64,000 bases of DNA, taken from assembly GCA_963750475.1 (NCBI GenBank), contig CAVVQQ010000003.1:513191-577190 (forward strand), read 5' to 3'. Positions within the stretch are counted from its first letter, which is position 1, and each line of letters opens with the position of its first letter. Below the pieces are notes generated by a model that was not told where the DNA came from, did not search any database, and saw only the letters and a program-made list of their open reading frames with translations. Shown here in pieces: positions 1 through 63,934 of this stretch. Made by a program: the position numbers and the translations under genes. This DNA is from an uncultured Acidobacteriota bacterium. Its GTDB lineage: Bacteria; Acidobacteriota; Vicinamibacteria; Vicinamibacterales; 2-12-FULL-66-21.

Positions 1-95
1 TACCGGTTACTGGCCACTGGCCACTGGCCACTGGTTACTGGTTACTGGTTACTGGTTACTGGTTACTGGTTACTGGCTACTGGTACTGGCTCGCG
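1..95. repeat. Tandem heptanucleotide array (TACTGGT / CACTGGC / TACTGGC; core CTGG), at least 12 units, truncated by the window edge
   Basis: Read directly: taccggt tactggc cactggc cactggc cactggt, then tactggt x5, then tactggc. The array ends just before the stop codon (tca at 96-98, minus strand) of the next gene. Confidence 0.9.
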
Positions 96-1349
96 TCAGC
101 CGCGGACGAAAGGTTCGCGCGGGTCGCGCGGGTCGGCCCAGCGGTCGTTCGGCACCAGCGGCGCCCAGCCGGGGCGGGCCGGATCCTGATCGTAGGGGTA
201 GTTGCCGAGCTCGTCGTAGAGCGCGGCATACTGCGCCAGCTTCGCGCGATCGAGCCGGACGCCCAGCCCGGGGCCGTCCGGCACCCGGATCGCCCCATCC
301 TCGTAGCGCAGCGGCCCGCCTTCGATGATGTCGTCGACGAGGTGATGGTAATGGGCGTCGGCGGCGAACGACAGGTTCGGCACCACCGCACCGAGATGGA
401 GCATGGTCGCCAGCTGGATGCCGAGCTCGCCCGACGAGTGGACCGCGACGCCGAGCTGGAAGGTGTCGCAGACGCCCGCCGCTTTCACGCATGGGCGAAT
501 GCCGCCCCAGAAAGTGGTGTCGAGGAGGATCACGTCAACCGCCCGGTTCAGCACGTTGGCGGCGAGCTGCTCGAAGTTGACGACGACGGTGTTGGTGGCG
601 AGCGGGAGGCGCAGCTTCTCGCGGGCGTGGCGCATGCCGGTGAGGCCGAAGACCGGATCCTCGAGGTAGTCGTTGTCGAGATCCTCGATGGCGCGGCCGA
701 AGCGGATCGCCTGCTCGGTGGTCCAGACCGCGTTCGGATCGAACCGGAACGAGTCCCCCGGCAGCGATGCGGCCACCGCCCGGTAGCATTCGAGATCGTG
801 GTCGGGCGGGAAGACCCCTCCCTTCAGCTTGTGCGATTTGAAGCCGTGTCTGGCCTTGAGGTCGCGCGCGCAGGCGACGAGATCGTCCGCGGTGCGGATC
901 GCGCCGCGTCCGTCGGCTGACGCATAGCGATAAAAGAGATACGACGCGAAGGGGACGCGGTCGCGGACCCGGCCGCCGAGGATGTCGCAGACCGGGACGC
1001 CCCACGCCTGGCCGAGCAGATCGAGGCACGCGAACTCCAGCGCCGCGACCACCTGCGTCCGGTTGTTGTAGAGCGACGCGGTCGGATTGGCGAGCAGGAA
1101 GCGCATGTCCTCGAGCAGCGCCGGGTCGCGCCCGACGAGCGAGCGTTTCAGGGACATCACGGTGGCGAGCGCCGACTCGCCGCCGCCGCCCATCTCCCCG
1201 AGTCCGATCAGACCGGTGTCGGTCTCGATTTCGACGACCGTGCGCACGAACCGTCCCCAGTGGCAGCCGTTGGCATGCCGGAGCGGCGCCTCGAGCGGGA
1301 CCGTGACCGTGGTCGCCCTGACATCACTGATCTTCATGGCTGCATCCAA
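96..1349 (-). CDS. Enolase-superfamily dehydratase (mandelate racemase/muconate lactonizing enzyme family, glucarate-dehydratase-like)
   Basis: 417-aa ORF. It has the N-terminal capping region ([20 protein letters not shown]...IGLGEMGGG) and barrel segments ([24 protein letters not shown]) typical of MR/MLE acid-sugar dehydratases. The true start may be the internal MKISDV. Confidence 0.75.
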
Positions 1350-1354
1350 TACGA

Positions 1355-1478
1355 GGTCGCTTCCAGCTCCCAGCTCCCAGCTCCCAGCTCCCAGCTCCCC
1401 GCTTCCAGCTCGCGGCTGCAGGTGACCCGCTGTCGGCGGCTGGTAGCGGGAAGCGGGGAGCGGGAAGCTGGGAGCTGG
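1355..1478. repeat. Inverted pair of heptamer arrays (CCAGCTC x5 then GGGAAGC/GGGAGCT units) forming a long imperfect hairpin
   Basis: Left arm is gcttccagctcccagctccc...ccgcttccagc. Right arm is gctggtagcgggaagcggggagcgggaagctgggagctgg. The reverse complement of ccgcttccagc matches gctggtagcgg with 1 mismatch. The pair lies between two minus-strand genes. Confidence 0.85.
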
Positions 1479-1919
1479 CTACTGCCCGCATCCCGCCGAC
1501 CGGAAGCGCACCGACCAGACGTCCATGACGGGGATGGTCTCGGGCGGCACCGGGCGGGACGCGCCCGAGCCAGCCACCGGGCTGCCGCCGCCGATGGTGA
1601 TCCGGCGGCCGATCTTGACGCCCGGCTCGATCAGCGCCGACTTGCGCACCAGGCCGGTGACGTCGACGAGGTGATGGTTCTCCTTCTTCACGTCGTCCAT
1701 CACGTCACCCTTCCCGGCAAGGCGGAAGGATTTCGCCCGGACCGGGGGACCGCTCTCCGTGTCGGGGCGGCGGACGTCCGACACCGCGAGCACGCGTCCC
1801 GCCAGGCAGCCGGTGATGGTGAGCTCGATCGAGTCCTTCGGGACTTTCGGTTTGTCGCTGGACGGCTCCTGTGCCGGGGCGGCGGCGAGCAGGGCCAGGA
1901 GGAGAAGGGATGCGGTCAT
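1479..1919 (-). CDS. Secreted hypothetical protein
   Basis: 146-aa ORF with a signal-peptide-like N-terminus (MTASLLLLALLAAAPAQE). No family recognised. Confidence 0.55.
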   Translation of the reverse strand: MTASLLLLALLAAAPAQEPSSDKPKVPKDSIELTITGCLAGRVLAVSDVRRPDTESGPPVRAKSFRLAGKGDVMDDVKKENHHLVDVTGLVRKSALIEPGVKIGRRITIGGGSPVAGSGASRPVPPETIPVMDVWSVRFRSAGCGQ

Positions 1920-2026
1920 GTGCTGATCCTCGCAGACGGCAGGCGATCTGACGATACCACGGCCCCCGGCGGCGCCGCCCCGCCGTCGTCGTAAAATGGC
2001 CCGGTTCGCAATTCCACGAGGACGCC

Positions 2027-5000
2027 ATGGCCTTGACCTCCCTGCGCGCGTTCGTGTTCCTGGCCGCCGCGGCGCTTCCGGCCGCCACCGCCTCTGCCCA
2101 GATCGATGCCCGGATGTTTCGCTATCCGGCGATCTCGAAGACCCAGATTGCCTTCGTCTACGCCGGCGACATCTGGGTCGCTCCGAAGGCAGGCGGCGGC
2201 GCCGTCCGGCTGACGTCGTCTCCCGGTGAAGAGCTGTTTCCGAGGTTCTCCCCCGACGGAACGAAGATCGCCTACAGCGCGTCGTACGACGGCAACGTCG
2301 ACGTGTTCGTCGTTCCGGCGGCCGGCGGCGAGCCGACGCGGCTGACGCACCATCCGATGGCCGACCGCGTCATCGGGTGGACGCCGGACGGCCAGCGGGT
2401 GCTGTTCGCGTCGAGCCGCGAGAGCGGCCGCCAGCGCTTCAACCAGTTCTATACCGTCGGCCTCGCGGGCGGCCTGCCCGACAAGCTGCCCATTCCCTAC
2501 GGCGAGTTCGGGACGTATTCGCCGGACGGCACCGAGTTCGTCTACATGCCGATGTCGCAGGACTTCCGCAACTGGAAGAGATACCGCGGCGGCTGGGCGC
2601 CGGATCTGATGCTGTTCGACCTCAAGACGTTCGCGACGAAGAACATCACCGCCAACCCGGCCAACGACGCGCAGCCGATGTGGCACGACAACACCATCTA
2701 CTTCCTGTCCGATCGCGGCGCCGGCGAGCGCAACAACATCTGGGCCTACGACGTGGCGTCGGGCACGGTGCGCCAGGTGACCCGGTTCGTCGATTTCGAC
2801 ATCACCTTCCCGTCGATTGGTCCCGACAGCGTCGTGTTCCAGGCTGGCGGCCGGCTCTACCTGCTCGATCTGGCGAGCGAGAAGTGGTCCGAGGTGGCCG
2901 TTCACGTCGTCAGCGACGAGACGACGCTGAGGCCGCGCACGGCGAAGGTCGAAGCCCTGGTCTTCGATGCGGCGGTATCGCCGACCGCCAGGCGCGCGGT
3001 CTTCGAGGCCCGCGGCGACGTCTTCACGGTTCCGGCCGAGTTCGGCGCCGTTGTCAACCTGACGCGATCGTCCGGGGTCGCCGAGCGCTACCCGAGGTGG
3101 TCGCCGGATGGGAAGCAGATTGCCTACTGGAGCGACCGCAGCGGCGAGTACGAGCTGACGCTGATGTCCGCCGACGGTACCGGCGCCGAGAAGAAGATCA
3201 CCTCCCTGGGCGCGGGCTTCCGTTATGCGCCGCAGTGGTCCCCCGATAGCAGACGGCTCGCCTACATCGACCAGGCGATGCGCATCCGGATCACCGACGC
3301 GGCCGGGGGCCGCACGGCCGAGATCGATCAGAGCCCGCAGTGGCTCTCTCACGGCGATCTGGAAGCCTTCCGGCTGCAGTGGTCGCCGGACTCCCGCTGG
3401 CTGACCTACGCGCGGCCGACCGCCGCCGGCAACACCGCGGTGTTTCTCTACGACACCCGGTCGTCGAAGCTGGCGCAGGCGACGAGCGGGTATCTCTCCG
3501 ACGCCCAGCCGACGTTCGACCCGGAAGGGAAGTATCTCTTCTACGCCTCGGATCGGGAATTCGACCCCGTCTACGGCAGCTTCGACAACAGCTGGACCTA
3601 TCCGAATCCCACCCGCCTCGTTGCCGTGCCGCTCCGCAAGGACGTCCGGTCCCCGCTGGCGACGCGCAACGAGTCCGAGAATCCGCTCCTCGACACCGTT
3701 GACAGGGAGAAGGACAAGGGAGAGAAGAAGGACGACAAGAAGGACGAAAAGAAGGAGGAGAAGAAAGACGGGAAAAGCGGGCCGGAGGCGAAACCAACCG
3801 ACCAGGGACCAAAGGACAAGGCCAGCGACGAGGCGAAGCCCGAGGAGCGCCCTCCGGCGCCCGCCGTCGTGGACATCGATCTCGACGGCTTCGAACAGCG
3901 CGCCGTCGTGCTCCCGCCGAAGGCCGGCAACTACGCCGATCTCCAGTCGATCAAGGGCAAGCTGCTCTACCGCCGCCAGCCGAGGTCGGGGTCGAGCGAC
4001 GACAAGACGCCGATCGTGTTCTTCGATTTCGCCGAGCGCGAGGAAAAGACGGTGCTCGACGATGCGAACCGGTTCGAGGCGAGCTTCGACGGCAAGAAGC
4101 TGCTGGCGGTGAGCAAGGACAAGTACGCGATCGTCGAGATCAAGCCGGCGCAGAAGTTCGAGAAGCCGATGGCCCTCGGCGAATTGGAGGCGCCGGTCAA
4201 CCCGCGCGCCGAGTGGCGGCAGATCTTCAACGACACCTTCCGGTTCGAGCGGGACTTCTTCTACGACCCGAACATGCACGGCGTCGACTGGGCGGCGATG
4301 CGGGCCCGCTACGGCGAGCTGATGGAGGATGCCGTGACGCGCTGGGACGTGGAGTTCGTGCTCGGCGAGTTCATCGGCGAGCTCAACGCCTCGCACACCT
4401 ATCACGGCGGCGGCGATCAGGAGGCCGTCCCCGAGCAATCGGTGGGGATGCTCGGGGTGGACTGGGAGCTCGCCAACGGAGCGTACCGCATCAAGTCGGT
4501 CGTTCGCGGCGGACCGTGGGACGCCGCCGTCCGCTCGCCGCTCGACGAGCCGGGCGTCAACGTCGCGGCGGGGGAATACGTGCTCGCCGTCAACGGCGTG
4601 CCGCTCGATCCGAAGCTCGATCCGTGGGCGGCATTTCAGGGGCTCGGCGGCCAGACCGTCCTGCTGACCGTCAACGGCAAACCGTCGATGACCGGCGCCC
4701 GCCAGGTCGTCGTCAAGTGCCTGACGAGCGAGACCGACCTGCGCTTCCGCGCCTGGATCGAAGAGCGGCGCCAGCTGGTCGACAAGGCGACCGGGGGGCG
4801 CATCGGATACATTTACGTGCAGAGCACCGGCGTCGACGCGCAGAACGACCTGATGCGGCAGTTCATCGCGCAGTGGAGGAAGGACGGCCTGATCATCGAC
4901 GAGCGCTGGAACAGCGGCGGCCAGATCCCCGACCGCTTCGTCGAGCTCCTCAACCGCCCTCTGGTGGCGTACTGGGGCGTCCGCGACGCGCCGAGCCAGC

Positions 5001-5416
5001 AGTGGCCGCCGGTGGCGCATCGCGGCCCGCAGGTGATGCTGATCAACGGCTGGAGCGGCTCGGGCGGCGACGCGTTCCCGACCTACTTCCGCCAGGCCGG
5101 GCTCGGCCCGCTCATCGGGACGCGGACCTGGGGCGGCCTGATCGGCATCAGCGGCGCCCCGGCGCTGGTCGACGGCGGGACCGTCACCGTGCCCACTTTC
5201 CGGATGTTCGACCCGAAAGGGCAGTGGTTCGCCGAGGGGCACGGCGTCGAGCCCGACATCGAGGTCGAGGACGATCCCTCCCAGCTGGCGAAGGGCATCG
5301 ATCCGCAGCTCCAGCGCGCGATCAAGGAAGTGAGCGACGCGGTGACGAAGGCGCCGAAGGCGCCGGCGCGCCCCCCGTACGAGAAGCGCATTCCGACCGC
5401 CGGGGCGGGGCGCTGA
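2027..5416 (+). CDS. Tricorn protease homologue (beta-propellers + PDZ + S41 peptidase domain)
   Basis: 1129-aa intact ORF with a signal peptide. It has TolB-like propeller repeats (SPDGTKIAYSASYDGNVDVFVVPAAGGEPTRLTHHP) and an S41 core at the C-terminus (IIDERWNSGGQIP...INGWSGSGGDAFP...GTRTWGGLIG). Confidence 0.85.
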   Translation: MALTSLRAFVFLAAAALPAATASAQIDARMFRYPAISKTQIAFVYAGDIWVAPKAGGGAVRLTSSPGEELFPRFSPDGTKIAYSASYDGNVDVFVVPAAGGEPTRLTHHPMADRVIGWTPDGQRVLFASSRESGRQRFNQFYTVGLAGGLPDKLPIPYGEFGTYSPDGTEFVYMPMSQDFRNWKRYRGGWAPDLMLFDLKTFATKNITANPANDAQPMWHDNTIYFLSDRGAGERNNIWAYDVASGTVRQVTRFVDFDITFPSIGPDSVVFQAGGRLYLLDLASEKWSEVAVHVVSDETTLRPRTAKVEALVFDAAVSPTARRAVFEARGDVFTVPAEFGAVVNLTRSSGVAERYPRWSPDGKQIAYWSDRSGEYELTLMSADGTGAEKKITSLGAGFRYAPQWSPDSRRLAYIDQAMRIRITDAAGGRTAEIDQSPQWLSHGDLEAFRLQWSPDSRWLTYARPTAAGNTAVFLYDTRSSKLAQATSGYLSDAQPTFDPEGKYLFYASDREFDPVYGSFDNSWTYPNPTRLVAVPLRKDVRSPLATRNESENPLLDTVDREKDKGEKKDDKKDEKKEEKKDGKSGPEAKPTDQGPKDKASDEAKPEERPPAPAVVDIDLDGFEQRAVVLPPKAGNYADLQSIKGKLLYRRQPRSGSSDDKTPIVFFDFAEREEKTVLDDANRFEASFDGKKLLAVSKDKYAIVEIKPAQKFEKPMALGELEAPVNPRAEWRQIFNDTFRFERDFFYDPNMHGVDWAAMRARYGELMEDAVTRWDVEFVLGEFIGELNASHTYHGGGDQEAVPEQSVGMLGVDWELANGAYRIKSVVRGGPWDAAVRSPLDEPGVNVAAGEYVLAVNGVPLDPKLDPWAAFQGLGGQTVLLTVNGKPSMTGARQVVVKCLTSETDLRFRAWIEERRQLVDKATGGRIGYIYVQSTGVDAQNDLMRQFIAQWRKDGLIIDERWNSGGQIPDRFVELLNRPLVAYWGVRDAPSQQWPPVAHRGPQVMLINGWSGSGGDAFPTYFRQAGLGPLIGTRTWGGLIGISGAPALVDGGTVTVPTFRMFDPKGQWFAEGHGVEPDIEVEDDPSQLAKGIDPQLQRAIKEVSDAVTKAPKAPARPPYEKRIPTAGAGR

Positions 5417-5419
5417 TCG

Positions 5420-5638
5420 TCACCAGCCCTGGCGGACGGCGAACCAGATCGCGGCGGTGAGCGCCGCGCCGACGCCGAGGAGCGACGCGATGCCGGGCGT
5501 GAAGTACGGGTAGACCATGAAGGAGAGGCCGCCGACCAGGTACGGCCAGCGCTGCTCCTTCTTGCCGTAGACAAACAGCACGAACCCGGCCCCGCCGGGG
5601 ATGAGCGACAGAAACAGCCACGTCGGGTCAAACGTCAT
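5420..5638 (-). CDS. Small membrane protein (2 TM), hypothetical
   Basis: 72-aa ORF with two hydrophobic helices (WLFLSLIPGGAGFVLFVY; SLLGVGAALTAAIWFAV). Convergent with the tricorn gene. Confidence 0.45.
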   Translation of the reverse strand: MTFDPTWLFLSLIPGGAGFVLFVYGKKEQRWPYLVGGLSFMVYPYFTPGIASLLGVGAALTAAIWFAVRQGW

Positions 5639-5653
5639 TGCTTACGTCATCCT

Positions 5654-6964
5654 ATGCCCAATCGCACTCCGCTCTATAAGAGCCTCTACATCCAGGTCCT
5701 CGCCGGCATCATCGCCGGCGTGCTGCTCGGGGTGCTCGCCCCCGCCACCGGCGTGGCGATGCGGCCGCTCGGCGACGGCTTCATCAAGCTGGTCCGGATG
5801 CTGATCGCGCCGATCATCTTCGCCACCATCGTCGCCGGCATCGCCCGCATGGGAGAGTTGAAGGAGGTCGGCCGGATCGGGCTGCGCGCCTTCATCTATT
5901 TCGAGGTCCTCTCGACCGTCGCGCTGCTGGTCGGACTGGTCGTCGTCAACGTCGTCCGTCCGGGCGACGGGCTGCACGTCGTGCCGAGCGCCGCCGACAT
6001 CCAGGCCGCGTCCGGCTACGGCACCGCCGCCGGCCAGGCGACCGGCACCGTCGCCTTCCTGCTCAACATCATCCCGACCACGTTCGTGGATGCGTTCGCG
6101 CGCGGCGACATCCTGCAGGTGCTGCTGATCTCGACCCTGGTGGGCCTGGCGCTGCTGATGCTCGGCGAGCGCACGGCGGCGCTCGTCGGCGTGATCGACG
6201 AGGCCGGGCAGGCGCTCTTTGCGGTGGTCGGGATCGTCATGCGGGCGGCGCCGGTCGGGGCCTTCGGCGCGATGGCGTTCACGGTCGGCCGCTACGGCAT
6301 CGGGACGCTGCTGTCGCTCGGCAAGCTGATGGCGGCGGTCTATCTCACCTGCGCGCTCTTCGTCGTCCTCGTCCTCGGCCTCGTCCTCCGCGTCGTCGGC
6401 CTCGGGCTGTTCCGCTTTCTCCGCTACATCGCCGACGAGATCGTCATCGTCATCGGCACCTCGTCGTCCGAGTCGGCGCTGCCGCGCCTGATGGTGAAGC
6501 TTGAGCGGCTCGGCTGCGCCAAGCCGGTCGTCGGGCTGGTCATCCCGGCCGGGTACTCGTTCAACCTCGACGGGACCGCGATCTACATGACGATGGCGGC
6601 GGTGTTCGTGGCGCAGGCAAGCGGCGTCGCGCTGTCGGTGCGGGAGCAGATCTCGATCCTCGCGGTCCTGATGCTGACGTCGAAGGGGGCGGCGGGGGTG
6701 ACCGGCAGCGGATTCATCACGCTCGCGGCGACCCTGTCGGCGATTCCCTCGATCCCGCCGGCCGGCCTGGCGCTGCTCGTCGGCGTCGATCGCTTCATGT
6801 CGGAAGCCCGGGCGGTCACCAACCTCATTGGCAATGCGGTCGCGACCGTGGCGATCGCGTGGTGGGACCGCGCGCTCGACATCGAACAGGCGCGGGCGGA
6901 GCTCGGCCGCCGCGGCGAACCGGCGCTGCTCGTGCCCGAGCCGGTGCTGGCGCCGGAACCGTAA
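5654..6964 (+). CDS. dctA: C4-dicarboxylate / dicarboxylate-amino acid:cation symporter
   Basis: 436-aa ORF. The N-terminus LYKSLYIQVLAGIIAGVLLG and the motifs SSSESALP and MSEARAVTNLIGNAVA are typical of DctA/DAACS carriers. Confidence 0.9.
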   Translation: MPNRTPLYKSLYIQVLAGIIAGVLLGVLAPATGVAMRPLGDGFIKLVRMLIAPIIFATIVAGIARMGELKEVGRIGLRAFIYFEVLSTVALLVGLVVVNVVRPGDGLHVVPSAADIQAASGYGTAAGQATGTVAFLLNIIPTTFVDAFARGDILQVLLISTLVGLALLMLGERTAALVGVIDEAGQALFAVVGIVMRAAPVGAFGAMAFTVGRYGIGTLLSLGKLMAAVYLTCALFVVLVLGLVLRVVGLGLFRFLRYIADEIVIVIGTSSSESALPRLMVKLERLGCAKPVVGLVIPAGYSFNLDGTAIYMTMAAVFVAQASGVALSVREQISILAVLMLTSKGAAGVTGSGFITLAATLSAIPSIPPAGLALLVGVDRFMSEARAVTNLIGNAVATVAIAWWDRALDIEQARAELGRRGEPALLVPEPVLAPEP

Positions 6965-6967
6965 GGC

Positions 6968-7052
6968 GACAGGAGCCAGTTCCCAGTCGCCAGTGGCCAG
7001 TCGCCAGTGGCCAGTCGCCAGTCGCCAGTCGCCAGTCCCAGTCGCCGGTTCC
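6968..7052. repeat. Tandem heptamer array (CCAGTCG / CCAGTGG / CCAGTTC), about 11 units, single orientation
   Basis: ccagttc ccagtcg ccagtgg ccagtcg ccagtgg ccagtcg x3 and so on. It starts 4 nt after the dctA stop and ends about 18 nt before the stop of the convergent gene at 7070. Confidence 0.9.
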
Positions 7053-7069
7053 GAGTTCGCGAGCGGATG

Positions 7070-7390
7070 TCAGGGGCGGGTGCTGAGGCGGCGGACGGCA
7101 TCGACGAGCGCCTGCAGCGCGGAATCGGCGATGGGATCGTCCACCGTCACGCGGTGACGCCTCCGCCCGTCCTCCACTTCGATTTCGTGGGACTGATGGT
7201 CGGCCGAGCCCGCGGGCGCGGGCAGCCGGCTCGGGAGGGTAAAGAACCCGGCCTCCTGCACCAGCCGTTCGAGTGCGGTCCGGTCCGCGGGGGCCAGCGT
7301 CCCGGCGTCAACCGTCCGCGCCGCCTCCAGCCCGGGGAAGGCGCCAATTCCCCCGGTCGTCCTGACACTCACCCTGAGGGGGACACTCAT
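7070..7390 (-). CDS. Small hypothetical protein, possibly emfourin-like (metalloprotease-inhibitor family)
   Basis: 106-aa ORF. LRVSVRTTGGIGAFPGLEAARTVD...LERLV resembles the R-x-GG-x-AG...VD N-terminus I associate with emfourin-family proteins, but the match is weak. An alternative GTG start lies at 7372. The ATG lies inside the 33-nt repeated motif. Confidence 0.4.
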   Translation of the reverse strand: MSVPLRVSVRTTGGIGAFPGLEAARTVDAGTLAPADRTALERLVQEAGFFTLPSRLPAPAGSADHQSHEIEVEDGRRRHRVTVDDPIADSALQALVDAVRRLSTRP

Positions 7391-7409
7391 CTTTAGCGTA
7401 ACTCGTTGA
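7377..7409. repeat. 33-nt conserved motif, copy 1 (AGGGGGACACTCATCTTTAGCGTAACTCGTTGA)
   Basis: Identical except for 1 base to 24094-24126. Both copies are intergenic. Confidence 0.85.
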
Positions 7410-7448
7410 CCCGTAAGGGCAAACAGTAAAACAGGGGCTGATCGGCGC

Positions 7449-9401
<1,953 letters not shown>

Positions 9402-9405
<4 letters not shown>

Positions 9406-10046
9406 GAACACGCATGCGAATCGTTGTGATGGCCCTGGCGGTTGCGGCGGCGCTGCTGCCGCAGGCGGCCGCCGCGCAGGTCGGCAAGTCCCAGGGCGTC
9501 GTCGACGCGAACACCGCCGCCGAGAAGGACCTCGCGGTGATGCCGCACATGACGCCGGCGATTGCCGCCGCGCTGGTCGCGGCGCGGCCGTTCAAGAGCG
9601 TCACCGAGCTGAACGCCTTCCTGCTCGGCCACGGCCTGTCGCAGGAAGACGCGATGGAGCTCTATCGCAAGGCCTTCGTCCACATCAACCTGAACACGGC
9701 GAGCCGCGAGGAGATCCTGCTGGTGCCGGGGGCCGGAACCCGGATGGTGCGCGAGTTCACCGAATACCGACCGTGGAAATCGTGGGCGCAGTTCGACAAG
9801 GAGATCGGCAAGTACGTCGGCGCCGAGGCGACGGCGGCGCTGGCGCAGTATGCCTTCATTCCGGTCAACCTGAACACCGCGACCGACGCCGACATCCTGA
9901 CGATTCCGGGAGCGGGCGCGCGCATGGTGCGCGAGTTCAAGGAGTACCGCCCGTGGACGTCGTGGGCGCAGTTCGACAAGGAGATCGGCAAGTACGTCGG
10001 GCAGAAGGAAACCGACCGGCTGAAGCGCTACGTGACGTTCGAGTAG
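9402..10046 (+). CDS. Secreted helix-hairpin-helix (ComEA-like) repeat protein
   Basis: Starts at MRTRMRIVVMALAVAAALLPQAAAAQ (signal peptide). It carries three HhH-type segments; the last two are a tandem duplication (INLNTA..VPGAGTRMVREFTEYRPWKSWAQFDKEIGKYVG and VNLNTA..IPGAGARMVREFKEYRPWTSWAQFDKEIGKYVG). Confidence 0.7.
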
Positions 10047-10049
10047 CGA

Positions 10050-12731: not shown

Positions 12732-12892
12732 ACAGCGCTATTTAATCAGGTTCCGCGACGGTCATGCGGAATGGCGCTGCCGCGGACCGGCGCCGGGCCC
12801 TTCGAACAGACCGCACTCGACTCGCCGCGCCGGACCGGCTACCATTTCACGGCAGACGACCCGGGCCCCGATCGCCCGTCGCAGGGACCACC

Positions 12893-14372: not shown

Positions 14373-14395
<23 letters not shown>
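12893..14395 (+). CDS. KaiC-like double-domain RecA-superfamily ATPase
   Basis: Two Walker A motifs (GDPGTGKTTLALQF; GPAGVGKSTVAAQF). TGITGLDQLLDGGLP and GVEALDRLLGGGL head the two domains, and the C-terminus VVLLRFFEAEGMVRKAISVVKKRTGTHETTIREF parallels KaiC CII. I take the start at MPQADP (12893) rather than the upstream ATG at 12764. Confidence 0.85.
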
Positions 14396-15980
<1,585 letters not shown>

Positions 15981-16035
15981 GCTCGAGCGGCGGCGGCAGA
16001 GCTCACCGCACCGCCACAGGCATTAAAATACGGAC

Positions 16036-16536: not shown

Positions 16537-16542
16537 AGGGTT

Positions 16543-17529: not shown

Positions 17530-17542
17530 AAGCGGGGCAGTC

Positions 17543-18874: not shown

Positions 18875-18896
18875 CGGGTTGCTATAATCGAGCGGA

Positions 18897-26715: not shown

Positions 26716-26872
26716 CGGCTTCAGGCTTCCCGCTTCCCGCTTCCCGCTTCCCGCTGAAGCCAGCAGCCAGTAACCAGTAACCGGTAACCGGTAACCAGAT
26801 AGCTGGAAGCTGGCAGCTGGCAGCTGGAAGCTGGCAACTGGCAACTGGCAACTGGCCCCTGGCCTCTCTTAG
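26716..26872. repeat. Composite heptamer array (GCTTCCC x4 inside a GGCTTCAG/CTGAAGCC stem; CCAGTAA/CCGGTAA x4; CTGGAAG/CTGGCAG/CTGGCAA x9)
   Basis: Read directly. It starts immediately after the SDR stop codon (taa 26713-26715) and ends 17 nt before the symporter ATG. Confidence 0.9.
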
Positions 26873-29564: not shown

Positions 29565-32142
29565 ATGGCGCAAGAGACCCTTCCCGTCGTTACCGGAGAA
29601 AAGGACCGCTCCCTCCAGGAGGCGCTGACCCGGCTGACCGCGTCCCGCGGCCCGGTGAGCGATCCGGCGGATCCGATCGTCACGGCGGCGCATCGCCTGC
29701 CGGCGATTGCAGCGTCGTTCGCCCCCTATCCTGAAGGGACCGACCCGCGGCTGCGGAGCGCGCTGGCGGCGCGGGGCGTCGAGCAGCTCTACACGCATCA
29801 GGCCGAAGCGTTCGGCCACGTCGCTCGGCGGCCGCAACGTCGTCACCATCACGCCGACCGCTTCGGGCAAGACGCTCTGCTACAACGCGCCGGTGCTGAA
29901 CGCGATCCTGCAGGATCCGTCGACCCGCGCGCTGTATCTGTTTCCCGACCAAGGCGCTGGCGCAGGATCAGCTCGCCGAGCTGCACGCGCTGTCGGAGCT
30001 CGTCAGCGAGCGACACCGACGTCGAGATCGGCGTCTTCACCTACGACGGCGACACGCCGTCGGATGCGCGGCGCGCGATCCGCGGCAAGGCCCACGTCGT
30101 GCTCAGCAATCCCGACATGCTGCACTCGGGGATCCTGCCGCACCATCCGCGCTGGGCGAAGCTGTTCGAGAACCTGCGCTTCGTCGTCATCGACGAGCTG
30201 CACGCCTATCGCGGCGTGTTCGGCAGCCACCTCGCGCAACATCCTGCGCCGGCTGCAGCGGATCTGCCGGCACTACGGGTCCGATCCGGTCTTCATCTGC
30301 TCGTCGGCGACGATCGCCAATCCGCGCGAGCTGGCCGAGGGGCTGACCGGGCGCCCGTTCGAGCTGGTCGAGAAGAGCGGCGCGCCGCGCGGCGAGAAGT
30401 TCTTCCTCTTCGTCAACCCGCCGGTCGTCAACGCGCAGCTCGGCATCCGCCGCTCGTACCTGGCCGAGGCGCGGCGGGTCGCGCTCGAGTTCCTGAAGCA
30501 CAACCTGCAGCTGATCCTCTTCGCGCAGAGCCGGCTGGCGGTCGAGATCCTGACGACGTATCTGAAGGATGCCTTCCACGGCCCGCCGGGCGCGGCCGAC
30601 GTCATCCGCGGCTATCGCGGCGGCTACCTGCCGAACCGCCGCCGCGAGATCGAGCGCGGGCTGCGCGACGGGCTGGTGCGCGCGGTGGTCTCGACCAACG
30701 CGCTCGAGCTCGGCATCGACATCGGCGCGCTCGACGTGTCGGTGATGGCCGGCTACCCGGGAACGATTGCCGCGACCTGGCAGCGCGCCGGCCGCGCCGG
30801 GCGCCGCGACGACGCGATCGGCGGCGGTGCTGGTGCGCCAGCAGCGCGCCGATCGATCAGTTCATCGTCCGCAACCCGTCGTATTTCTTCGACGCCATCG
30901 CCCGAGCACGCGCTGATCAATCCCGACAACCTGCACATCCTGCTCGACCACGTGAAGTGCGCGGCGTTCGAGCTGCCGTTCACGAGACGACGAGACAGTT
31001 CGGCGTCGCGAGGCGCCGCGACGAGGTCGACATTCAGGCGGTGCTCGGCGTCCTCGCCGAGGAGGGCTTCGTCCATCAGGCCGACGGCCAGTGGAACTGG
31101 ACCAACGAGTCGTACCCGGCCGACGCGGTCAGCCTGCGGTCGGTGTCGTCCGACAACTTCGTCGATCGTCGACACCACGCACGGCGAGCGGGTCATCGGC
31201 GAGACCGACTTCACCAGCGGCCCGTCGACGCTGCACGAGAAGGCGATCTACATCGTCGAAGGGCGCTGTTCCAGGTCGAGCGGCTCGACTTCGACGGCCG
31301 CAAGGCCTACGTGCGCGCGGTCGACTGCGACTACTACACCGACGCGATCACCTACACGAAGGTCACGATCCTCGACACGTTCGAGACGGGTCGCCAGCTC
31401 GCAGCTTCCAGCTCCCAGCTCACCGCTGACGACGACGAGCTGCCAGCTCCCAGCTCCCAGCTGCCGGCTGACGACGCAGAGCTCCCGGCCCTCGGCAGCT
31501 CGAGCTTCAGCGGCACTCCCCGGCGATCTCGAGCCGGCGGGCGTATCCGGCCCCGGCGCGATCCGCTCGCACGGCGAGGTCCACGTCGTCTCGCGCGTCG
31601 TCGGCTTCAAGAAGATCAAGTTCTACACCAACGAGAACGTCGGCTCGGGCGAGCTCGATCTGCCCGAGCAGCAGATGCACACCTCGTCGTACTGGCTGAC
31701 GATTCCGTCGGCGGTGATGGCGGCGCTGCCGTTTGCCGGCGACGATCGCCGCGACGGCGTCGTCGGCCTGGCGTTCGCGATGAAGAACGTCGCGCAGCTG
31801 CTGCTGATGTGCGACGGCCACGACATCGGCCTGTCGGTGGACGGCGGCGCGCTCGAGCGGTCGGCGCGGACCGGCGGCATCGGCGGCGTGCCCGACGCGC
31901 TCGCGACCGAGCCGAACGTCTTCATCTACGACAACTATCCCGGGCGGCATCGGCTTCAGCCGGCCGCTGTTCGAGATGCACGCGCCGCTGCTGGCGCGGA
32001 CGCGCGAGCTGATTGCCGGCTGCCCGTGCGAGTCCGGCTGCCCGTCGTGCGTCGGGCCCGAGGGCAACACCGGGCCGCACGCCAAGACAGGTGGCGCTCG
32101 CGCATCCTCGACGCGCTCGACTCGCCGCGGAGGCCGCCTGAC
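29565..32142 (+). pseudogene. DEAD/DEAH helicase with C-terminal DUF1998 zinc domain (MrfA/YprA-like), more than 10 frame changes as assembled
   Basis: Pieces alternate between the frames of ORFs 29565 and 29707. They are: LYTHQAEAF; NVVTITPTASGKTLCYNAPVL; VVIDELHAYRGVFGSHLA; ICSSATIANP; STNALELGIDIGALD...WQRAGRAGRR; DCDYYTDAITYTKV; and GCPCESGCPSCVGPEGN (the DUF1998 Cys cluster). The end coordinate is approximate. Confidence 0.8.
31394..31512. repeat. Heptamer array embedded in the helicase reading frame (17 units in constant 7-nt phase)
   Basis: ccagctc gcagctt ccagctc ccagctc accgctg acgacga cgagctg ccagctc ccagctc ccagctg ccggctg acgacgc agagctc and so on. This is the same unit family as the intergenic arrays. 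It lies between the DUF1998 segments ILDTFE and HGEVHVVSRV. Confidence 0.85.
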
Positions 32143-34974: not shown

Positions 34975-35130
34975 CATATCCTCTCGCTACCGGCTTCCCG
35001 CTGTCCCGCTTCCCGCTTCCCGCTTCCCGCTACGCTGTCCCGCTCCCACGCTGTCCGCTGCCACGCTGCCACGCTGCCACGCTGCTCCGCTGCCACGCTG
35101 CTACACGGGCACGCTGCTCCGCCACGGTCG
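34975..35130. repeat. Tandem array drifting from 7-nt (CGCTTCC / GCTGTCC) to 8-nt units (ACGCTGCC / ACGCTGCT)
   Basis: Read directly: gcttccc gctgtcc cgcttcc x3 ... acgctgcc acgctgcc acgctgcc acgctgct ccgctgcc acgctgct. It begins about 10-20 nt upstream of the AKR start codon (34966, minus strand). Confidence 0.9.
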
Positions 35131-43700: not shown

Positions 43701-43901
43701 GTGACCGCCGTGCGCCGCCGGGCTGCGATTAGCCGCATGCGCTTCGGTGCGCTGGCCGTGCTGGCCATCCTGGTCGCAGCGCCGGGCATTCACCTCTTCG
43801 AACTGTGGCTGGCCCCCTCGGCCGCGTTCTATCTAAGTCACGTTATGGCGCTGGCTCTGCTGGCCGTGGTGATCTGGCGCTGGCGCGCTTCACGCCCGTA
43901 G
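43701..43901 (+). CDS. Small membrane protein, hypothetical
   Basis: 66 aa with two hydrophobic helices. A heptamer array starts right after its stop codon. Confidence 0.35.
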   Translation: MTAVRRRAAISRMRFGALAVLAILVAAPGIHLFELWLAPSAAFYLSHVMALALLAVVIWRWRASRP

Positions 43902-43965
43902 CCAGTAACGGTAGCCGGTAACCAGTAGCCAGTAACGACCGGTAGCCTGTAATCAGTAACGCTGA
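43902..43965. repeat. Tandem heptamer array (AGCCAGT / AACCAGT / AGCCGGT), about 9 units
   Basis: gccagta acggtag ccggtaa ccagtag ccagtaa cgaccggtag cctgtaa tcagtaa. It abuts the stop codon at 43899-43901. Confidence 0.85.
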
Positions 43966-46702: not shown

Positions 46703-47104
46703 CAGCTTCCGGCTTCCGGCTTCCCGCTGTTGCCAGTAGCCAGTTGCCAGTTGCCAGTAGCCGGTAGCCAGTAGCCAGTACCACGGCACTGGCAGAACTG
46801 ACCTTACGGAACTCTGCGCAGAACTGAACCTCGGAGAACCGAACCCCGCAGAACCCTGCGGAACCCTGCACAACCCGGCAGAACGCATATCCTGCAGAAC
46901 CCTGTGGAACCCCGCAGAACTCGGTGGAACCCTTTTGAACCCCGCAGAACCCTGCAGAACAGAACCCTGCAGAACTGAACCCTGCAGAACAGAACCCTGC
47001 AGAACAGAACCTTGTAGAACCGAACCTTGGAGAACCGAACCTTGGAGAACCGAACCCTGCAGAACCCTGTGGAACCCCGAAGAACCCCGTAGAACCCGTA
47101 GAAT
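46703..47104. repeat. 400-nt composite tandem-repeat tract (heptamers CGGCTTC / GCCAGTN, then about 15-nt units GAACCCTGCAGAACA)
   Basis: cagcttc cggcttc cggcttc...tgccagt agccagt tgccagt..., then agaaccctgcagaac repeated about 8 times with variants (cgaaccttggagaac), decaying to cccgtagaac. It spans from 3 nt after the upstream stop to 6 nt before the M28 ATG. Confidence 0.9.
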
Positions 47105-55683: not shown

Positions 55684-57050
55684 TCACCGACCGCCGTTGG
55701 CCATCGAGCCGAGGAACTCGGCGTTGTTCTTGGTCTTGCCCATCTTCGACAGCAGCAGCTCCATCGCCTCGACCGGCGAGAGCGGCGTCAGCACCTTGCG
55801 CAGCACCCACACGCGGTTGAGGTCTTCCTTCGGCATGAGCAGCTCTTCCTTGCGCGTGCCGCTCTTCTGGATGTCGATCGACGGGAACACGCGGCGGTCG
55901 GCCAGCTTGCGATCGAGGTGGATTTCGAGGTTGCCGGTGCCCTTGAACTCCTCGAAGATCACTTCGTCCATGCGCGAGCCGGTGTCGATCAGCGCGGTCG
56001 CGATGATGGTCAGCGAGCCGCCTTCTTCGATGTTGCGGGCGGCGCCGAAGAAGCGCTTCGGGCGCTGCAGCGCGTTGCTGTCGACGCCGCCCGACAGCAC
56101 CTTGCCCGAGGGCGGCACGATGGTGTTGTAGGCGCGCGCCAGGCGGGTGATCGAGTCGAGCAGGATGACGACGTCCTTCTTGTGCTCGACCAGGCGCTTG
56201 GCCTTCTCGATGACCATCTCGGCGACCTGGACGTGGCGCGTGCGCCGGCTCGTCGAACGTCGACGAGATGACCTCGCCCTTGACCGAGCGCTGCATGTCG
56301 GTGACTTCTTCGGGCCGCTCGTCGATGAGCAGGACGATCAGGTAGACCTCGGGATGGTTGGTCGTGATGCTGTTGGCGATGTTCTGCAGCAGCATCGTCT
56401 TGCCGGTGCGCGGCGGCGCGACGATCAGGCCGCGCTGGCCCTTGCCGATCGGCACCATCAGGTCCATGACGCGGGCCGACAGGTTGTCGGAGGCGGTCTC
56501 GAGCTTGATGCTGCTCCTGCGGGTAGAGCGGCGTCAGGTTCTCGAAGAAGATCTTCTCGCGCGCCCGCTCCGGCGGCTCGAAGTTGACCGCCTCGACCTT
56601 GATCAGCGCGAAGTAGCGCTCGCCTTCCTTCGGCGGGCGGATCTGGCCCGACACCGTGTCGCCGGTGTGCAGGTCGAACTTGCGGATCTGCGACGGGGAG
56701 ACGTAGATGTCGTCGGGGCCGGGCAGGTAGTTGTAGTCGGGGGCGCGCAGGAAGCCGAAGCCGTCGGGCAGCGTCTCGAGCACCCCTTCGGAGAAGATCA
56801 GGCCGCTCTTCTCGGCGCGCGCTCTGCAGGATCTCGAAGATCAGCTCCTGCTTGCGCATGCCGGTCGCGCCGGGCACGTCGAGCTGCTTGGCGATCTTGG
56901 TCAGCTCGGTCGACGCTCATGTCCTTGAGCGTCGAGAGCTCGATACGCTCGACTCCGCCGGCGGGGCGGTCGGCCGGGGCCGTCGTCGCGGGCGTCGTCG
57001 CTGCCGGTGCCGCTGTTGTCGGCCCCGCCGGAGCGGCTTGTCTGCGTCAT
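55684..57050 (-). pseudogene. rho: Transcription termination factor Rho, at least 5 frame changes as assembled
   Basis: The pieces across frames are: [38 protein letters not shown]; [41 protein letters not shown]; [24 protein letters not shown]; and [16 protein letters not shown]...[22 protein letters not shown]. Confidence 0.9.
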
Positions 57051-57770: not shown

Positions 57771-60169
<2,399 letters not shown>

Positions 60170-60184: not shown

Positions 60185-60300
60185 GCAGCTGCTCAGCTTC
60201 AGCTGTCAGCTACCGGCTGCCAGGGCGTGCAGCTGGTGGCGAGGTCGCGGGAGCGGCTGAAGTGCTGCCAGCGGTGAGCTGGCAGCTGGAAACGGCAGCG
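60185..60300. repeat. Heptamer arrays in both orientations (CAGCTNN then AGCTGGN) between lon and clpX
   Basis: The first part is cagctgc tcagctt cagctgt cagctac cggctgc, and the second part includes agctggc agctgga aacggca. The two parts share several complementary 8-12-nt blocks, for example ccggctgccag and ctggcagctgg. Confidence 0.85.
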
Positions 60301-60301
60301 T

Positions 60302-61557
<1,256 letters not shown>

Positions 61558-61650
61558 GGTCGTTGTCAGCTTCCAGCTTCCAGCGTCCGGCTTCCCGCTG
61601 GCACCCGTGACCGGAAACGCTGGCAGCTGGGAGCTGGCAGCGGTGAGCGC
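61558..61650. repeat. Inverted heptamer arrays forming a ~24-bp hairpin between clpP and clpX
   Basis: The reverse complement of cagcttccagcttccagcg (61567-61585) matches cgctggcagctgggagctg (61618-61636) at 17 of 19 positions. tccgg and ccgga extend the stem. The loop is about 20 nt. Confidence 0.85.
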
Positions 61651-62252: not shown

Positions 62253-62362
62253 ACGGACTCGGACTCCGGACGTGCTGCGCGAGAATCGGATTGCAGGGGA
62301 GCCGGCGTCGCGGCAGGTCTGGCTCGTGTCTGATTATATCGGCCGCGACCGGCGAATGTCAA

Positions 62363-63726
62363 TTACCGTACGGTCGATCCCTCCTGGATGACCGTGGCCC
62401 TGCGACAGCAGGAAATCGACCGACTTTCTCCCGCCGCAGGCCGGCATACAGCCGGGCGAGGCCGCCCTCCTTCTCGAGCCGGGCCCGGACCGCGGCCGGC
62501 GTCCGGCCGGTGCGCTCGGCATAGCGGCTCGACCTCGGCCTCGACCTCGTCGTCGGTGACCTCGATCTGCTCGCGCCGGGCGACCTCGTCGAGCACCAGC
62601 GCGCCCTTGACCGCCTCGATGCGCCGCCTCGCGCTGCTGCTCGCGGAACTCCTCCCAGTTGATGCCGGCCTTCATCGGGTCGATCTGCTGCTCGATCAGC
62701 CGGCGCGACGAACTCCTCGACCCGGCGGTCGATCTCGCGGTCGAGCAGCGTCGCCGGCACCTCGAACGTCACCCGCGCCGCCAGCTGCTTCAGCAGCTCG
62801 CCGCGCGCCTCGCGCTCGGCCTCGTGCTCGCCTCGTGCTCGAGATCCTCGCGCACCCGCGTCCGCAGCGCCTCGAGCGATCTCGAACTCGCCGAGATCCT
62901 TGGCGAACTCGTCGTCCAGCTCGGGCATGACCGCGGCGCCGGATCGCCTTGACCGTCGACGTGGTAGGTGACGGTCGTGCCGGCCAGCTCCGTCGATGGC
63001 GTAGTCGGCCGGGTAGTGCACGTCGAACGACTTCGACGTCGCCGTCCTGCAGGCCGATCAGCTGCTCGTCGAAGCCCGGCGGGTTGGCGGTGGCGCCGAT
63101 CTCGACGGTCACGTTGTCGTGCCGATCGGTGCTGCGGCTCGCCGGCCGCCGGCGGCGGCGCCGGCTCACCGGCGATCACGACGCGGCTCGTCCGTTTCGG
63201 CAGCGCCGTCCGCTCGATGTCCAGCACCACCGAGTCGCCCGTCTCGATCGCCGCGCCCTTCGACCGGCTCGTAGCGCGCGGCGCGCTCGCGCAGCCCTGC
63301 GAGCGCCTCGTCCACGGCCGCATCCTCGACCCGGCTGCGCCTTGCTGCGTGCAGCGTGATGCTGGCGTAGTCGCCCGGCTCGATCGGCGGGACGGTGTCG
63401 AAGGTCGCCGTGAACTTCAGCGGCTGCCCCTCTTCGACGACGACGTCGCGGATGTCGGGCGTGTCGACCGGCTCGACGCCGCGCTCGCGCAGCGCCTCGT
63501 CGACGGCGCGCGGGATCAGGCCGTGCGCGACGTCGTGCAGGATCTGATCGCGGAAGCGCTGGCGGACGACCTTGGCCGGCACTTTCCCGGGCCGGAAGCC
63601 GGGGATGCGCGCCGCCTTGCTGTAGTCGCGCGCGACCTTGTCGATCTCGGCATCGACGGTGACGCTCGGAATCTCGACGACGAGGTTCTTCTGGGTGTCG
63701 CTGACGTCTATAAATTCTGTCTTCAT
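62363..63726 (-). pseudogene. tig: Trigger factor, frame changes as assembled
   Basis: The N-terminus is MKTEFIDVSDTQKNLVVEIPSVTVDAEIDKVARDYSKAARIPGFRPGKVPAKVVRQRF. The later domains are split over three frames, ending AGLRREKSVDFLLSQ. Confidence 0.85.
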
Positions 63727-63747
63727 TGAGCTTCTGATGAGATCGAG

Positions 63748-63831
63748 TGCGAAAGGGGGGAGTCGAACCCCCACGGCCTTTCGGCCACCGGATCCTAAGT
63801 CCGGCGCGTCTGCCAGTTCCGCCACTTTCGC
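63748..63831 (-). tRNA. tRNA-Leu (anticodon UAG), class II with long variable arm
   Basis: The minus strand reads GCGAAAG-TG-GCGGAACTGGCAGACGC-G-CCGGA-CTTAGGA-TCCGG-TGGCCGAAAGGCCGT-GGGGG-TTCGACT-CCCCC-CTTTCGC-A. The acceptor, anticodon and T arms all pair. No CCA is encoded. Confidence 0.9.
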
Positions 63832-63849
63832 GCGGGGACCGGCAACATT

Positions 63850-63934
63850 TTAGCGTATCACGCGGGAAGCCGGCAGCGGGAAGCGGGAAGCGGGAAGCTG
63901 GAAGCGGGAAGCTGGCAGCTGGAAGCCGGAAGCT
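63850..63934. repeat. Tandem heptamer array (GCGGGAA / GCTGGAA / GCTGGCA / GCCGGAA), about 11 units
   Basis: gcgggaa gccggca gcgggaa x3 gctggaa gcgggaa gctggca gctggaa gccggaa. It lies between the stop codon of the partial gene at 63935 and the 5' side of tRNA-Leu. Confidence 0.9.

Follow-up and report, generated by a model that had tools for sequence, protein, structure and literature searches.

The present analysis concerns a 64,000-nt stretch of DNA from an uncultured acidobacterium (GenBank assembly GCA_963750475.1, contig CAVVQQ010000003.1, positions 513,191 to 577,190 of the forward strand), referred to throughout as the window, and a set of tandem arrays of 7-nt units that fill much of its intergenic DNA. 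An earlier note, made from the letters of this DNA, had listed such arrays at 11 sites, and Tandem Repeats Finder (TRF), with which they were located here, recovers period-7 arrays at every one; they are labelled A1-A11 in window order, and their anatomy is read on the strand of the neighbouring genes. Within the window, TRF reports 15 arrays of four or more copies at period 7 and at most two at any other period, and 20 first-order Markov random windows contain zero period-7 arrays. No heptamer array had been overlooked in the window, the remaining period-7 rows of TRF holding 3.3 copies or fewer. Head-to-tail repetition of a 7-nt unit in at least three to four copies, above chance, is thereby combined with dispersal of few unit families over many loci (11 sites; CCAG(T/C)NN and GCTTCCN), as is characteristic of the broad class of heptanucleotide long simple sequence repeats (SSRs), or repeats resembling the short tandemly repeated repetitive (STRR) sequences. 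The CCAG/CTGG and GCTTCC/GGAAGC cores named earlier are borne out by unit reading, with one cloud of units having a CCAG core and variable positions 5-7 (CCAGTAA, CCAGTAG, CCAGTCG, CCAGCTC and CCAGCTT) and a second, CCCGCTT (equal to GCTTCCC), standing one step away from it. A CRISPR array is ruled out, as had been maintained from the start, by the contiguity of the 7-nt units and the lack of spacers. The arrays and their neighbours are the following.

A1, 1..95 (-): single-armed run of CCAGTAA/CCAGTAG/CCAGTGG, at least 13 units (TRF 1-89, 12.9 copies); begins 6 nt past the TGA stop (98-96) of the MR_MLE gene and continues beyond the window start.
A2, 1350..1478 (-): inverted pair (TRF 1359-1411 and 1445-1475); C-rich arm (CCAGCTC/CCCGCTT) 0 nt after a TAG stop (1481-1479), G-rich arm (AGCTGGG x5-7) finishing about 18 nt ahead of the MR_MLE start at 1337.
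A3, 6968..7056 (+): single-armed GCCAGTC/GCCAGTG, about 11 units (TRF 6975-7056), between convergent SDF symporter (stop 6964) and Emfourin (stop 7070) genes (Pfam).
A4, 26716..26872 (+): compound inverted array, (GCTTCCC)x4.4, (CCAGTAA/CCGGTAA)x4.6 and (AGCTGGA/CTGGCAA)x9 (TRF 26725-26863), occupying the gap from the SDR stop at 26715 to the Na/Ala symporter start at 26890.
A5, 31394..31512 (+): CCAGCTC-type, intragenic (TRF 31394-31483), with a super-period of 42 nt.
A6, 34975..35130 (-): on the + strand (GCTTCCC)x6.6, then period-8 (ACGCTGCC)x11 (TRF); the sense (-) strand is the G-rich arm and ends 9 nt upstream of the aldo/keto reductase start at 34966; on the other flank, the array lies 190 nt downstream of a membrane-protein open reading frame (ORF), 35321-35800 (-).
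A7, 43894..43965 (+): degenerate CCAGTAA/CCGGTAG, about nine units (TRF 43894-43961), in the co-directional gap upstream of an SRPBCC gene, 43988-44644 (Pfam); its first unit includes the TAG of an unverified 66-aa ORF.
A8a, 46703..46780 (+): (GCTTCCG)x3.4, then (GCCAGTA/GCCAGTT)x7 (TRF 46705-46728 and 46732-46780); begins 2 nt past the TGA stop at 46700.
A8b, 46817..47103 (+): non-heptameric, adjoining A8a, with units GAACCCTGCA / CAGAACCCTGCAGAA (TRF periods 10, 15 and 30); finishes about 4 nt ahead of an M28 peptidase start at 47111 (Pfam).
A9, 60185..60300 (-): CCAGCTG/CCAGCTC ... CAGCTGA/AGCTGAG, short degenerate inverted pair spanning the gap from the clpX stop at 60302 to the lon start at 60169.
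A10, 61558..61650 (-): inverted pair TGCCAGC/TCCCAGC ... GGAAGCT x3 (TRF 61567-61599 and 61619-61648), spanning the gap from the clpP stop at 61651 to the clpX start at 61557 (Pfam).
A11, 63850..63934 (-): single-armed C-rich GCTTCCC/GCTTCCA, about ten units (TRF 63862-63934), 0 nt after a TAG stop (63937-63935) and ending 18 nt before tRNA-Leu, 63831-63747.

The total of about 1.5 kb first given for the heptamers was too large; heptamers are present, but the roughly 290 nt at 46817-47103 (A8b) have period 10/15. Likewise, A6 is a heptamer array in its run at 34985-35031, but has period 8 over 35032-35122, and A9 yields a TRF signal at 60186-60211 that is, however, weak, from a short and degenerate inverted pair. 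The GAACC core of A8b is also seen as heptamers elsewhere, namely as GGGTTCC in contig L013 and as (AGAACCG)x17 beside a CCAGTAR array in contig L168.

Nine of the arrays (A1, A2, A3, A4, A7, A8, A9, A10 and A11) begin 0-10 nt after a stop codon. Of the eight stop-abutting cases in the earlier count, those at 96, 6964, 26715, 46700, 60302, 61651 and 63935 stand, but the stop at 43901 belongs to the unverified 66-aa ORF; the stop at 1479, which abuts the 1355-1478 array, was not in that count. A6 (34975-35130) has no stop next to it, but only the minus-strand start codon at 34966. Since most arrays extend to 4-30 nt from the next start codon (in A11, from tRNA-Leu), entire intergenic spacers are filled. 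The proposed tie to gene 3' ends therefore holds in that placement is non-random with respect to genes, but it is whole stop-to-start spacers that are occupied, some arrays being linked only to a start and one being intragenic. Ten of the 11 sites are intergenic in a genome that is about 6% non-coding, and the same bias is seen in relatives; in the clean first 26.9 kb of the window, where non-coding DNA is about 6% of the sequence, arrays account for about 29% of the intergenic bases. In the unit families of the window, the C-rich reading comes first after a stop and the G-rich reading before a start in 7/7 independent arrays, and since A1/A2 and A3 lie within 7 kb of each other in opposite directions, this orientation follows genes, not replication. 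A general rule of C-rich after stop and G-rich before start fails outside the window and is even reversed there, as the sense strand of most stop-adjacent arrays at other loci has more G than C (10:2 and 15:4); each unit family has a polarity of its own. A reading as Chi-like sites or DNA uptake sequences was set aside, given the gene-linked orientation within 7 kb and the fact that such elements are not tandem. Phase-variable contingency SSRs were also rejected as a category, for the arrays follow the stops of housekeeping genes (clpP, clpX, SDR and transporters), and the lone intragenic array carries an in-frame 42-nt super-period.

That intragenic array is A5 (31394-31512), which the earlier note had placed in the same set as the stop-linked arrays, and which Pfam and tblastn instead locate inside a DEAD/MrfA-type helicase gene. 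It sits between the WHD_HRQ1 and MZB domains of this MrfA-Hrq1-like protein (Pfam), in a loop between 'TILDTF' and 'HGEVHVV' that has 8-11 residues in homologues and about 58 array-encoded residues in the window; at the nucleotide level the site measures 60-90 nt in syntenic relatives versus 179 nt in the window. The super-period of 42 nt (TRF) corresponds to six units and 14 aa, so that A5 could sit in frame as an insertion within a variable surface loop, and a frame change detected across it by tblastn is inseparable from nearby assembly errors. Two helicase homologues (P0004 and P0013) also bear some 30 inserted residues in this loop, which suggests that the loop is a recurrent hot spot for insertions.

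An acidobacterial origin, which had been proposed for this DNA, is confirmed and placed within the Vicinamibacterales by the MR_MLE protein (96-1349, minus strand), whose orthologues, 95-82% identical, lie in metagenome-assembled genomes (MAGs) labelled Acidobacteriota/Vicinamibacterales. Genes are intact up to about 26.7 kb, and A1-A4 lie in error-free sequence. From about 28 kb on, essential genes are broken, with at least five frame changes in lon (57774-60169), at least four in rho (55692-56813), at least four in clpX (60305-61524) and at least three in the helicase gene (29565-33027), a pattern that points to indel errors in the consensus of a long-read MAG and not to pseudogenes. Because of these errors, exact copy numbers and unit variants of A5-A11 are unreliable, and the point variants described earlier from unit to unit are untrustworthy at base level in those arrays; A1-A4, in clean sequence, show the same features as A5-A11. 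The many frameshift errors in the second half of the window could raise the suspicion that the arrays are themselves artefacts of noisy long-read assembly. This is scarcely credible, as A1-A4 sit where the sequence is free of errors, arrays of this kind stand at the same sites in independent Illumina contigs assembled with SPAdes or megahit (L001, L003 and L021), and similar arrays occur in at least 120 metagenomic contigs from JGI/ENA. The earlier note held that a collapse upon re-assembly would discredit the arrays; they recur in independent assemblies, including short-read ones.

Four arrays, A2, A4, A9 and A10, are inverted pairs with the potential to form long hairpins, with z-scores for folding of -8.0 (dG -94.8 kcal/mol), -3.1, -3.1 and -2.4 (dG -44.8), respectively. 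Single runs are unstructured as RNA (A1, z = +0.15; A11, z = -0.6; also A7 and A8a), A3 is weakly structured (z = -2.3), and the C-rich (+) strand of A6 folds worse than its shuffles (z = +3.0). Antisense RNA is more stable than sense RNA in three of the four hairpin arrays, and the idea that the hairpins are selected as RNA was dropped, since folding energies and G-U counts show no consistent sense-strand advantage. No T-run follows any array, and hairpin-plus-U terminators in 1-20 kb number 7 against 6.6 expected, all of them within genes and none at arrays. Among the roles entertained for the arrays, that of a classical intrinsic terminator is not supported, there being no U-tracts and no better folding of sense than of antisense RNA. 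Given that classical terminators are not enriched and that a rho gene is present, the genome may depend on Rho, or on hairpins without a U-tract. Window positions 1-20000 yielded no sigma-70-like promoters, and Rfam at the gathering threshold matched only a tRNA and nothing at the arrays. G-quadruplex-forming heptamers of the Xanthomonas type would need four or more G3+ tracts on one strand with short loops between them; by direct reading, A2, A4, A6 and A11 have G3-N4 spacing in their (GGGAAGC)n and (AGCTGGG)n runs, and the CCAGTAR/CCAGTCG arrays A1, A3, A7 and A8a do not.

Period 7 dominates the repeat-period spectrum in every group of Acidobacteriota loci compared, at densities per 100 kb of 20 period-7 arrays in the window, 5.3 in Vicinamibacteria-like loci, 3.6 in Blastocatellia/Pyrinomonadaceae and 0.55 in Terriglobia/Bryobacterales. 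The units of relatives depend on lineage and include CCAGTTC, GCACGTA, GGATCCC, GGGTTCC, AGTAGGC and GACAGTC, among others. Variation in both length and sequence at the same locus, another hallmark of the broad heptamer class, is seen on the flanks of MR_MLE and at the sites of A4, A6 and A9. Upstream of MR_MLE, the window has a hairpin pair, a relative with 95% protein identity (L001) has a single-armed (CCAGTTY)13 that spans the gap between stop and start, GCACGTR and GGTGCCAGG units stand there in L003 and L004, and L002 has remnants only; downstream of the gene, L001 is without any array. The MR_MLE orthologue of L003 is bracketed in mirror image, with (GGGGTGCCA)n(GCACGTG)n upstream (1724-1872) and (AACGTGC)n(ACCCTGGC)n downstream (3127-3190), the downstream arrays reverse-complementing those upstream and standing in the opposite order. 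At the A4 site, two of three syntenic relatives (L201 and L203) have TAG-N9-ATG, a spacer of 9 nt, and the third (L202) has TGA-(CAGCTTC)n-loop-(AGCTGAG)n-ATG over 144 nt, compared with 174 nt in the window. The A6 site shows a period-7 run and then a period-8 run in the window, L201 and L203 alike, with GCTTCCC/ACGCTGCC units in the window (34985-35122) versus GACAGTC/CCGAGCTA in L201 (13362-13490) and L203 (13425-13641), and with copy numbers that differ between the latter two (8 vs 10 and 7 vs 12 units). At the A9 site, L202 carries a CAGCTNN...AGCTGGR pair of the window type, and the DUF547-SDR gap, which holds an array pair in L202, is 40 nt without an array in the window. Nucleotide alignments of the window with these contigs break exactly at the arrays. 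Since sister species are without arrays at matching positions, no single site is essential.

Units are shared within genomes far beyond what is seen between them. When arrays at different sites were compared, with rotation and either strand allowed, 36-41% of array pairs within one genome were within one mismatch of each other versus 6% between genomes, and unit distance was 2.06 within a genome versus 3.00 between genomes. Outside arrays, the unit words have observed/expected ratios of 0.65-1.25 (CCAGTAA occurs eight times in 62 kb), and common genomic words were on that account rejected as seeds of the arrays. The sharing of units goes beyond what local slippage, acting independently on random seeds, can explain; a homogenising or selecting force is needed.

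The CCAGTAR family extends beyond the Acidobacteria. A scan of metagenome contigs for exact (CCAGTAR)3 yielded at least 120 loci (L081-L200), and the figures in this paragraph hold among the matches listed. Their GC content ranges from 35 to 72%, and the CCAGTAR unit is thus not acidobacterium-specific; orthologues of window regions were not seen among these matches (at least 120). Partner arrays in the same loci have the units CTACTGA, ACTGGCT or TCAGTTA, the last being the reverse complement of TAACTGA. In two contigs of GC 0.42-0.43 (L091 and L105), TCAGTTA arrays and CCAGTAR-type arrays lie some 50 nt apart (about 1144-1185 on the flipped strand; 4510-4548 / 5658-5696); the two contigs, which come from two samples, are almost identical and do not differ in copy number. 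Genes in the CCAGTAR loci were called by a GC-adaptive ORF heuristic and are approximate. Of the arrays with a stop within 30 nt, 32 read in sense and 8 in antisense (p = 2e-4); in co-directional gaps the figures are 27 and 8, respectively, and 10/53 arrays are in divergent (promoter) gaps. The upstream ORF ends inside the array in 13/32 cases, with the TAR of the unit as its stop codon; ORFs stopping in this way (13 loci, e.g. L082, L111, L125, L127, L139, L184 and L189) do so at a distance of -7, -14, -21 or -28 nt. Read in sense, CCAGTAR supplies stops in all three frames within 21 nt, but read in antisense it supplies none, so that its polarity can result from a neutral selection filter. 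For the stop-less CAGCTNN/GCTTCCC family, which is polar too, such a filter can offer no explanation.

No description of heptamer arrays in Acidobacteria/Vicinamibacteria was found in the literature, with most subscription journals outside search coverage, nor was an equivalent one for this lineage, of which the earlier note likewise knew none. Cyanobacterial STRRs, first described around 1990, resemble the window repeats in being dispersed heptamer arrays, mostly non-coding and lineage-specific, with few unit families per genome, but they belong to another phylum with another GC content. In the strict sense, STRRs are sequences of heterocystous cyanobacteria, and the host here falls in the Acidobacteriota/Vicinamibacterales. 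As the closest analogue, a place the earlier note gave them, STRRs are apt in that the arrays are heptamers of the STRR or long-SSR type, but nearer relatives are the heptamers of Xanthomonas and Nostoc (PMC4692102) and the TAACTGA repeats (PMC4679880). The Xanthomonas GGGAATC and Nostoc GGGGA(C/T)T heptamers are intergenic, near ORF ends, with gene-relative strand preference and some inverted pairs, and occupy the same sites in related species with widely varying lengths and sequences (PMC4692102). Like the window arrays, they are built of tandem 7-nt units whose core is conserved while other positions vary (GGGANTN in Xanthomonas; PMC4692102), dispersed over dozens to hundreds of intergenic loci close to ORF ends, biased in gene-relative orientation, occasionally paired in inverted fashion with stem-loop potential, retained at the same sites in related species, and next to genes of all functional classes; Xanthomonas is, in addition, a high-GC host. 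They differ in their units, among which only the GCTTCCC/GGGAAGC and CCCAGCT subfamilies of the window could form G-quadruplexes or i-motifs and CCAGTAR cannot. After stops, the sense strand is G-rich in Xanthomonas and C-rich in the window, i.e. of opposite polarity. The window arrays are also longer, typically 5-13 units as opposed to a mode of 4, and often fill the stop-to-start spacer.

TAACTGA repeats, known from Beggiatoaceae, Cyanobacteria and Bacteroidetes, are similarly intergenic heptamers with strong gene-relative orientation (MacGregor 2015, PMC4679880), and they match CCAGTAR in that forward units give stops in three frames and can overlap the stop of the upstream gene (PMC4679880), as well as in their patchy distribution across phyla. 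MacGregor made the same stop-filter argument for their polarity and suggested horizontal spread (PMC4679880). In contrast to the window arrays, which are longer, stop-anchored and often paired as hairpins, TAACTGA sets mostly have 2-6 copies, lie immediately upstream of starts and have a proposed role in translation (PMC4679880). Heptamers are, as Mrazek 2007 is cited in PMC4679880, the commonest long simple repeat in SSR-rich bacterial genomes, and a slippage-based rationale for period 7 is attributed to the same work there. Long SSRs with 5-11-nt units share with the window a dominance of heptamers, a sporadic phylogeny, exclusion from coding sequence and a proposed slippage origin. Heptamer repeats were scored as normally represented in the four acidobacterial genera then sequenced (Huang & Mrazek 2014, PMC4060949); the Acidobacteria of that survey were genomes of the Terriglobia type, whereas the enrichment found here is in Vicinamibacteria and Blastocatellia, and the 2014 score agrees with the low heptamer density of Terriglobia-type loci here. 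Among other repeats, the repetitive extragenic palindromic (REP) sequences and bacterial interspersed mosaic elements (BIMEs) of enterobacteria are, like the window arrays, dispersed and individually dispensable, and form species-specific hairpins after stops, between co-directional or convergent genes. However, each REP copies one conserved palindrome, about 35 nt long, and REPs are tied to RAYT transposases, whereas the window elements share nothing beyond the heptamer unit and many are not palindromic. Membership in REP/BIME was rejected, the loops and stems of A2, A4, A9 and A10 having only heptamer units in common, and these elements may serve as a working analogy for how inverted pairs could act on mRNA.

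On balance, we consider it fairly probable that the arrays are lineage-specific heptanucleotide long SSRs that evolve rapidly by slippage and are confined by selection to non-coding DNA. This reading draws on the period-7 enrichment of the window and the period-7 dominance in relatives, on the rapid turnover at orthologous sites, and on the same set of properties having been described for the Xanthomonas/Nostoc heptamers and for TAACTGA; the selection filter draws on the stop-adjacent CCAGTAR arrays listed that supply the ORF stop (13/32) and on the location of the lone intragenic array in a variable loop. Arrays would arise, grow, shrink and change unit rapidly by slipped-strand mispairing, with exchange between arrays possibly adding to the change of unit. 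In a compact genome (about 6% non-coding), and with 7 not being a multiple of 3, selection would remove coding expansions, leaving arrays flush with stop and start codons and in some cases replacing an entire spacer. Inverted pairs, which could form long hairpins, probably stem from fold-back or template switching, and single runs would give unstructured tracts. The arrays are presumably co-transcribed as 3'-untranslated or intercistronic RNA, in which their gene-relative orientation would matter, and any function would be modulatory in the manner of REP/BIME: the arrays may insulate the upstream cistron or bring it to an end, shield 3' ends, or load a termination factor. What the analysis shows is that the arrays exist, are specific in period, have a non-random placement and a polarity, can potentially form hairpins, turn over, and share units within a genome; that slippage and conversion generate them, that they are transcribed and that they have any effect on expression is inferred. 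Most likely, the arrays can be spared at each individual site, and their role in transcripts does not go beyond modulation. Several points weigh against the slippage account. Local slippage cannot account for unit sharing (36-41% versus 6%, with words that are not common), which requires inter-array conversion, dispersal or a trans-acting selector, each of them hypothetical. Gene-relative polarity is only partly explained, as the neutral filter covers stop-containing units and the stop-less CAGCTNN/GCTTCCC family is also polar (7/7 in the window). Slippage explains neither the preference for 7 nor why only some lineages are array-rich, the density being about 0.55/100 kb in Terriglobia/Bryobacterales versus 20 in the window.

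Among other explanations, it is possible, if rather unlikely, that the arrays work in cis as functional RNA elements where one cistron borders on the next. In that case the single runs, C-rich, G-poor and unstructured, would be Rho-loading (rut-like) tracts, and the inverted pairs would be hairpin terminators lacking a U-tract, or 3'-end stabilisers or translation-uncoupling insulators akin to REP/BIME. The idea is consistent with array starts 0-10 nt past stop codons, with an orientation linked to genes and not to replication (A1/A2 vs A3) and the polarity of 32:8 among the CCAGTAR matches listed, with single-armed arrays that are unstructured (z = +3.0 for the C-strand of A6) and have about twice as much C as G, and with inverted pairs that fold strongly (z = -8 to -2.4). 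The count of classical terminators (7 vs 6.6 expected, all within genes, 1-20 kb) alongside a rho gene, and the stop-to-start hairpin layout kept at two sites in L202, point the same way. It is countered by the greater stability of antisense in 3/4 hairpins and the lack of a G-U signature of RNA-level selection, by orthologous sister-species sites that do without arrays, a 9-nt spacer being enough, and by a C-rich-after-stop arrangement that is not general, other loci being G>C in sense (10:2 and 15:4), A6 being G-rich in sense, and CCAGTAR arrays also standing in divergent gaps (10/53 of the matches listed).

A further explanation, which we regard as improbable, takes the arrays for multivalent platforms on which a DNA- or RNA-binding protein reads the CCAG/CTGG core every 7 nt, its specificity co-evolving with the unit. 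HutP reads UAG-N4 repeats, which also have period 7. Tandem heptads are a known format for protein binding, e.g. TTTTGAT in the ctxAB promoter of V. cholerae, and the conserved core with variable positions 5-7, as in Xanthomonas GGGANTN, the polarity specific to each unit family, and the unit families common to dispersed loci within a genome, different between species and made of words not generally common, would all fit. Yet no candidate protein was found, several unrelated unit families coexist in one genome (CAGCTTC, CAGGGCT, AGCTAGG and CCTTGAG in L202), arrays are dispensable at individual sites, and units change from one species to another although the flanking protein is still 91-95% identical, such that very fast co-evolution would be required. 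More improbable still is active spread or writing of the arrays, whether as palindromes resembling miniature inverted-repeat transposable elements with heptamer arms or through templated repeat-writing (slippage by a polymerase or reverse transcriptase) at gene boundaries. One rare unit does occur at many loci, a symmetric left-arm/loop/right-arm structure replaces the whole A4 spacer in the window and L202 where closer relatives have 9 nt, and CCAGTAR is found in contigs of 35-72% GC (matches listed), which recalls the horizontal spread proposed by MacGregor for TAACTGA. The hairpin arrays, however, have no conserved loop or terminal sequence and no target-site duplications, many arrays are single-armed, no associated transposase or reverse transcriptase gene was seen in the window or the loci, and gradients of copy number and unit within arrays resemble in-situ slippage. 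That a dedicated, lineage-specific agent, be it a co-evolving core-reading protein or a templated repeat-adding activity, writes, spreads or maintains the arrays is a speculation to which we give a low probability. If true, it would explain why the period is constant from phylum to phylum, why dispersed loci of one genome have rare unit words in common, why units switch so rapidly between sister species and why orientation relative to genes is family-specific, and would offer an answer to what STRR-type repeats are.

A class of heptamer arrays known from cyanobacteria, Xanthomonas and Beggiatoaceae gains a new lineage in abundant but uncultured soil Vicinamibacteria, and also in Blastocatellia, with an unusually high density in the window (about 20 arrays/100 kb, roughly 30% of intergenic DNA). 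The puzzle that the class poses is sharpened by whole-spacer replacement, by turnover between species with 90-95% identical proteins, by the sharing of rare units and by gene-relative orientation. The arrays break alignments and synteny at gene boundaries, and because they can supply stops or enter coding loops, they are relevant to MAG annotation and to strain typing by copy number.

Two further observations concern the surroundings of the arrays. About 20.7 kb (34970-55690), containing A7, A8 and genes with weak codon usage, has no counterpart in the syntenic L201-L203, where the gap between the aldo/keto reductase gene and rho is 1-5 kb, and this segment is possibly an island or a rearrangement. 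Between A11 and the trigger-factor gene lies tRNA-Leu (anticodon TAG; 63747-63831, minus strand), and since the listed ORF at 63166-63825 overlaps it, the start of tig is probably near 63726.

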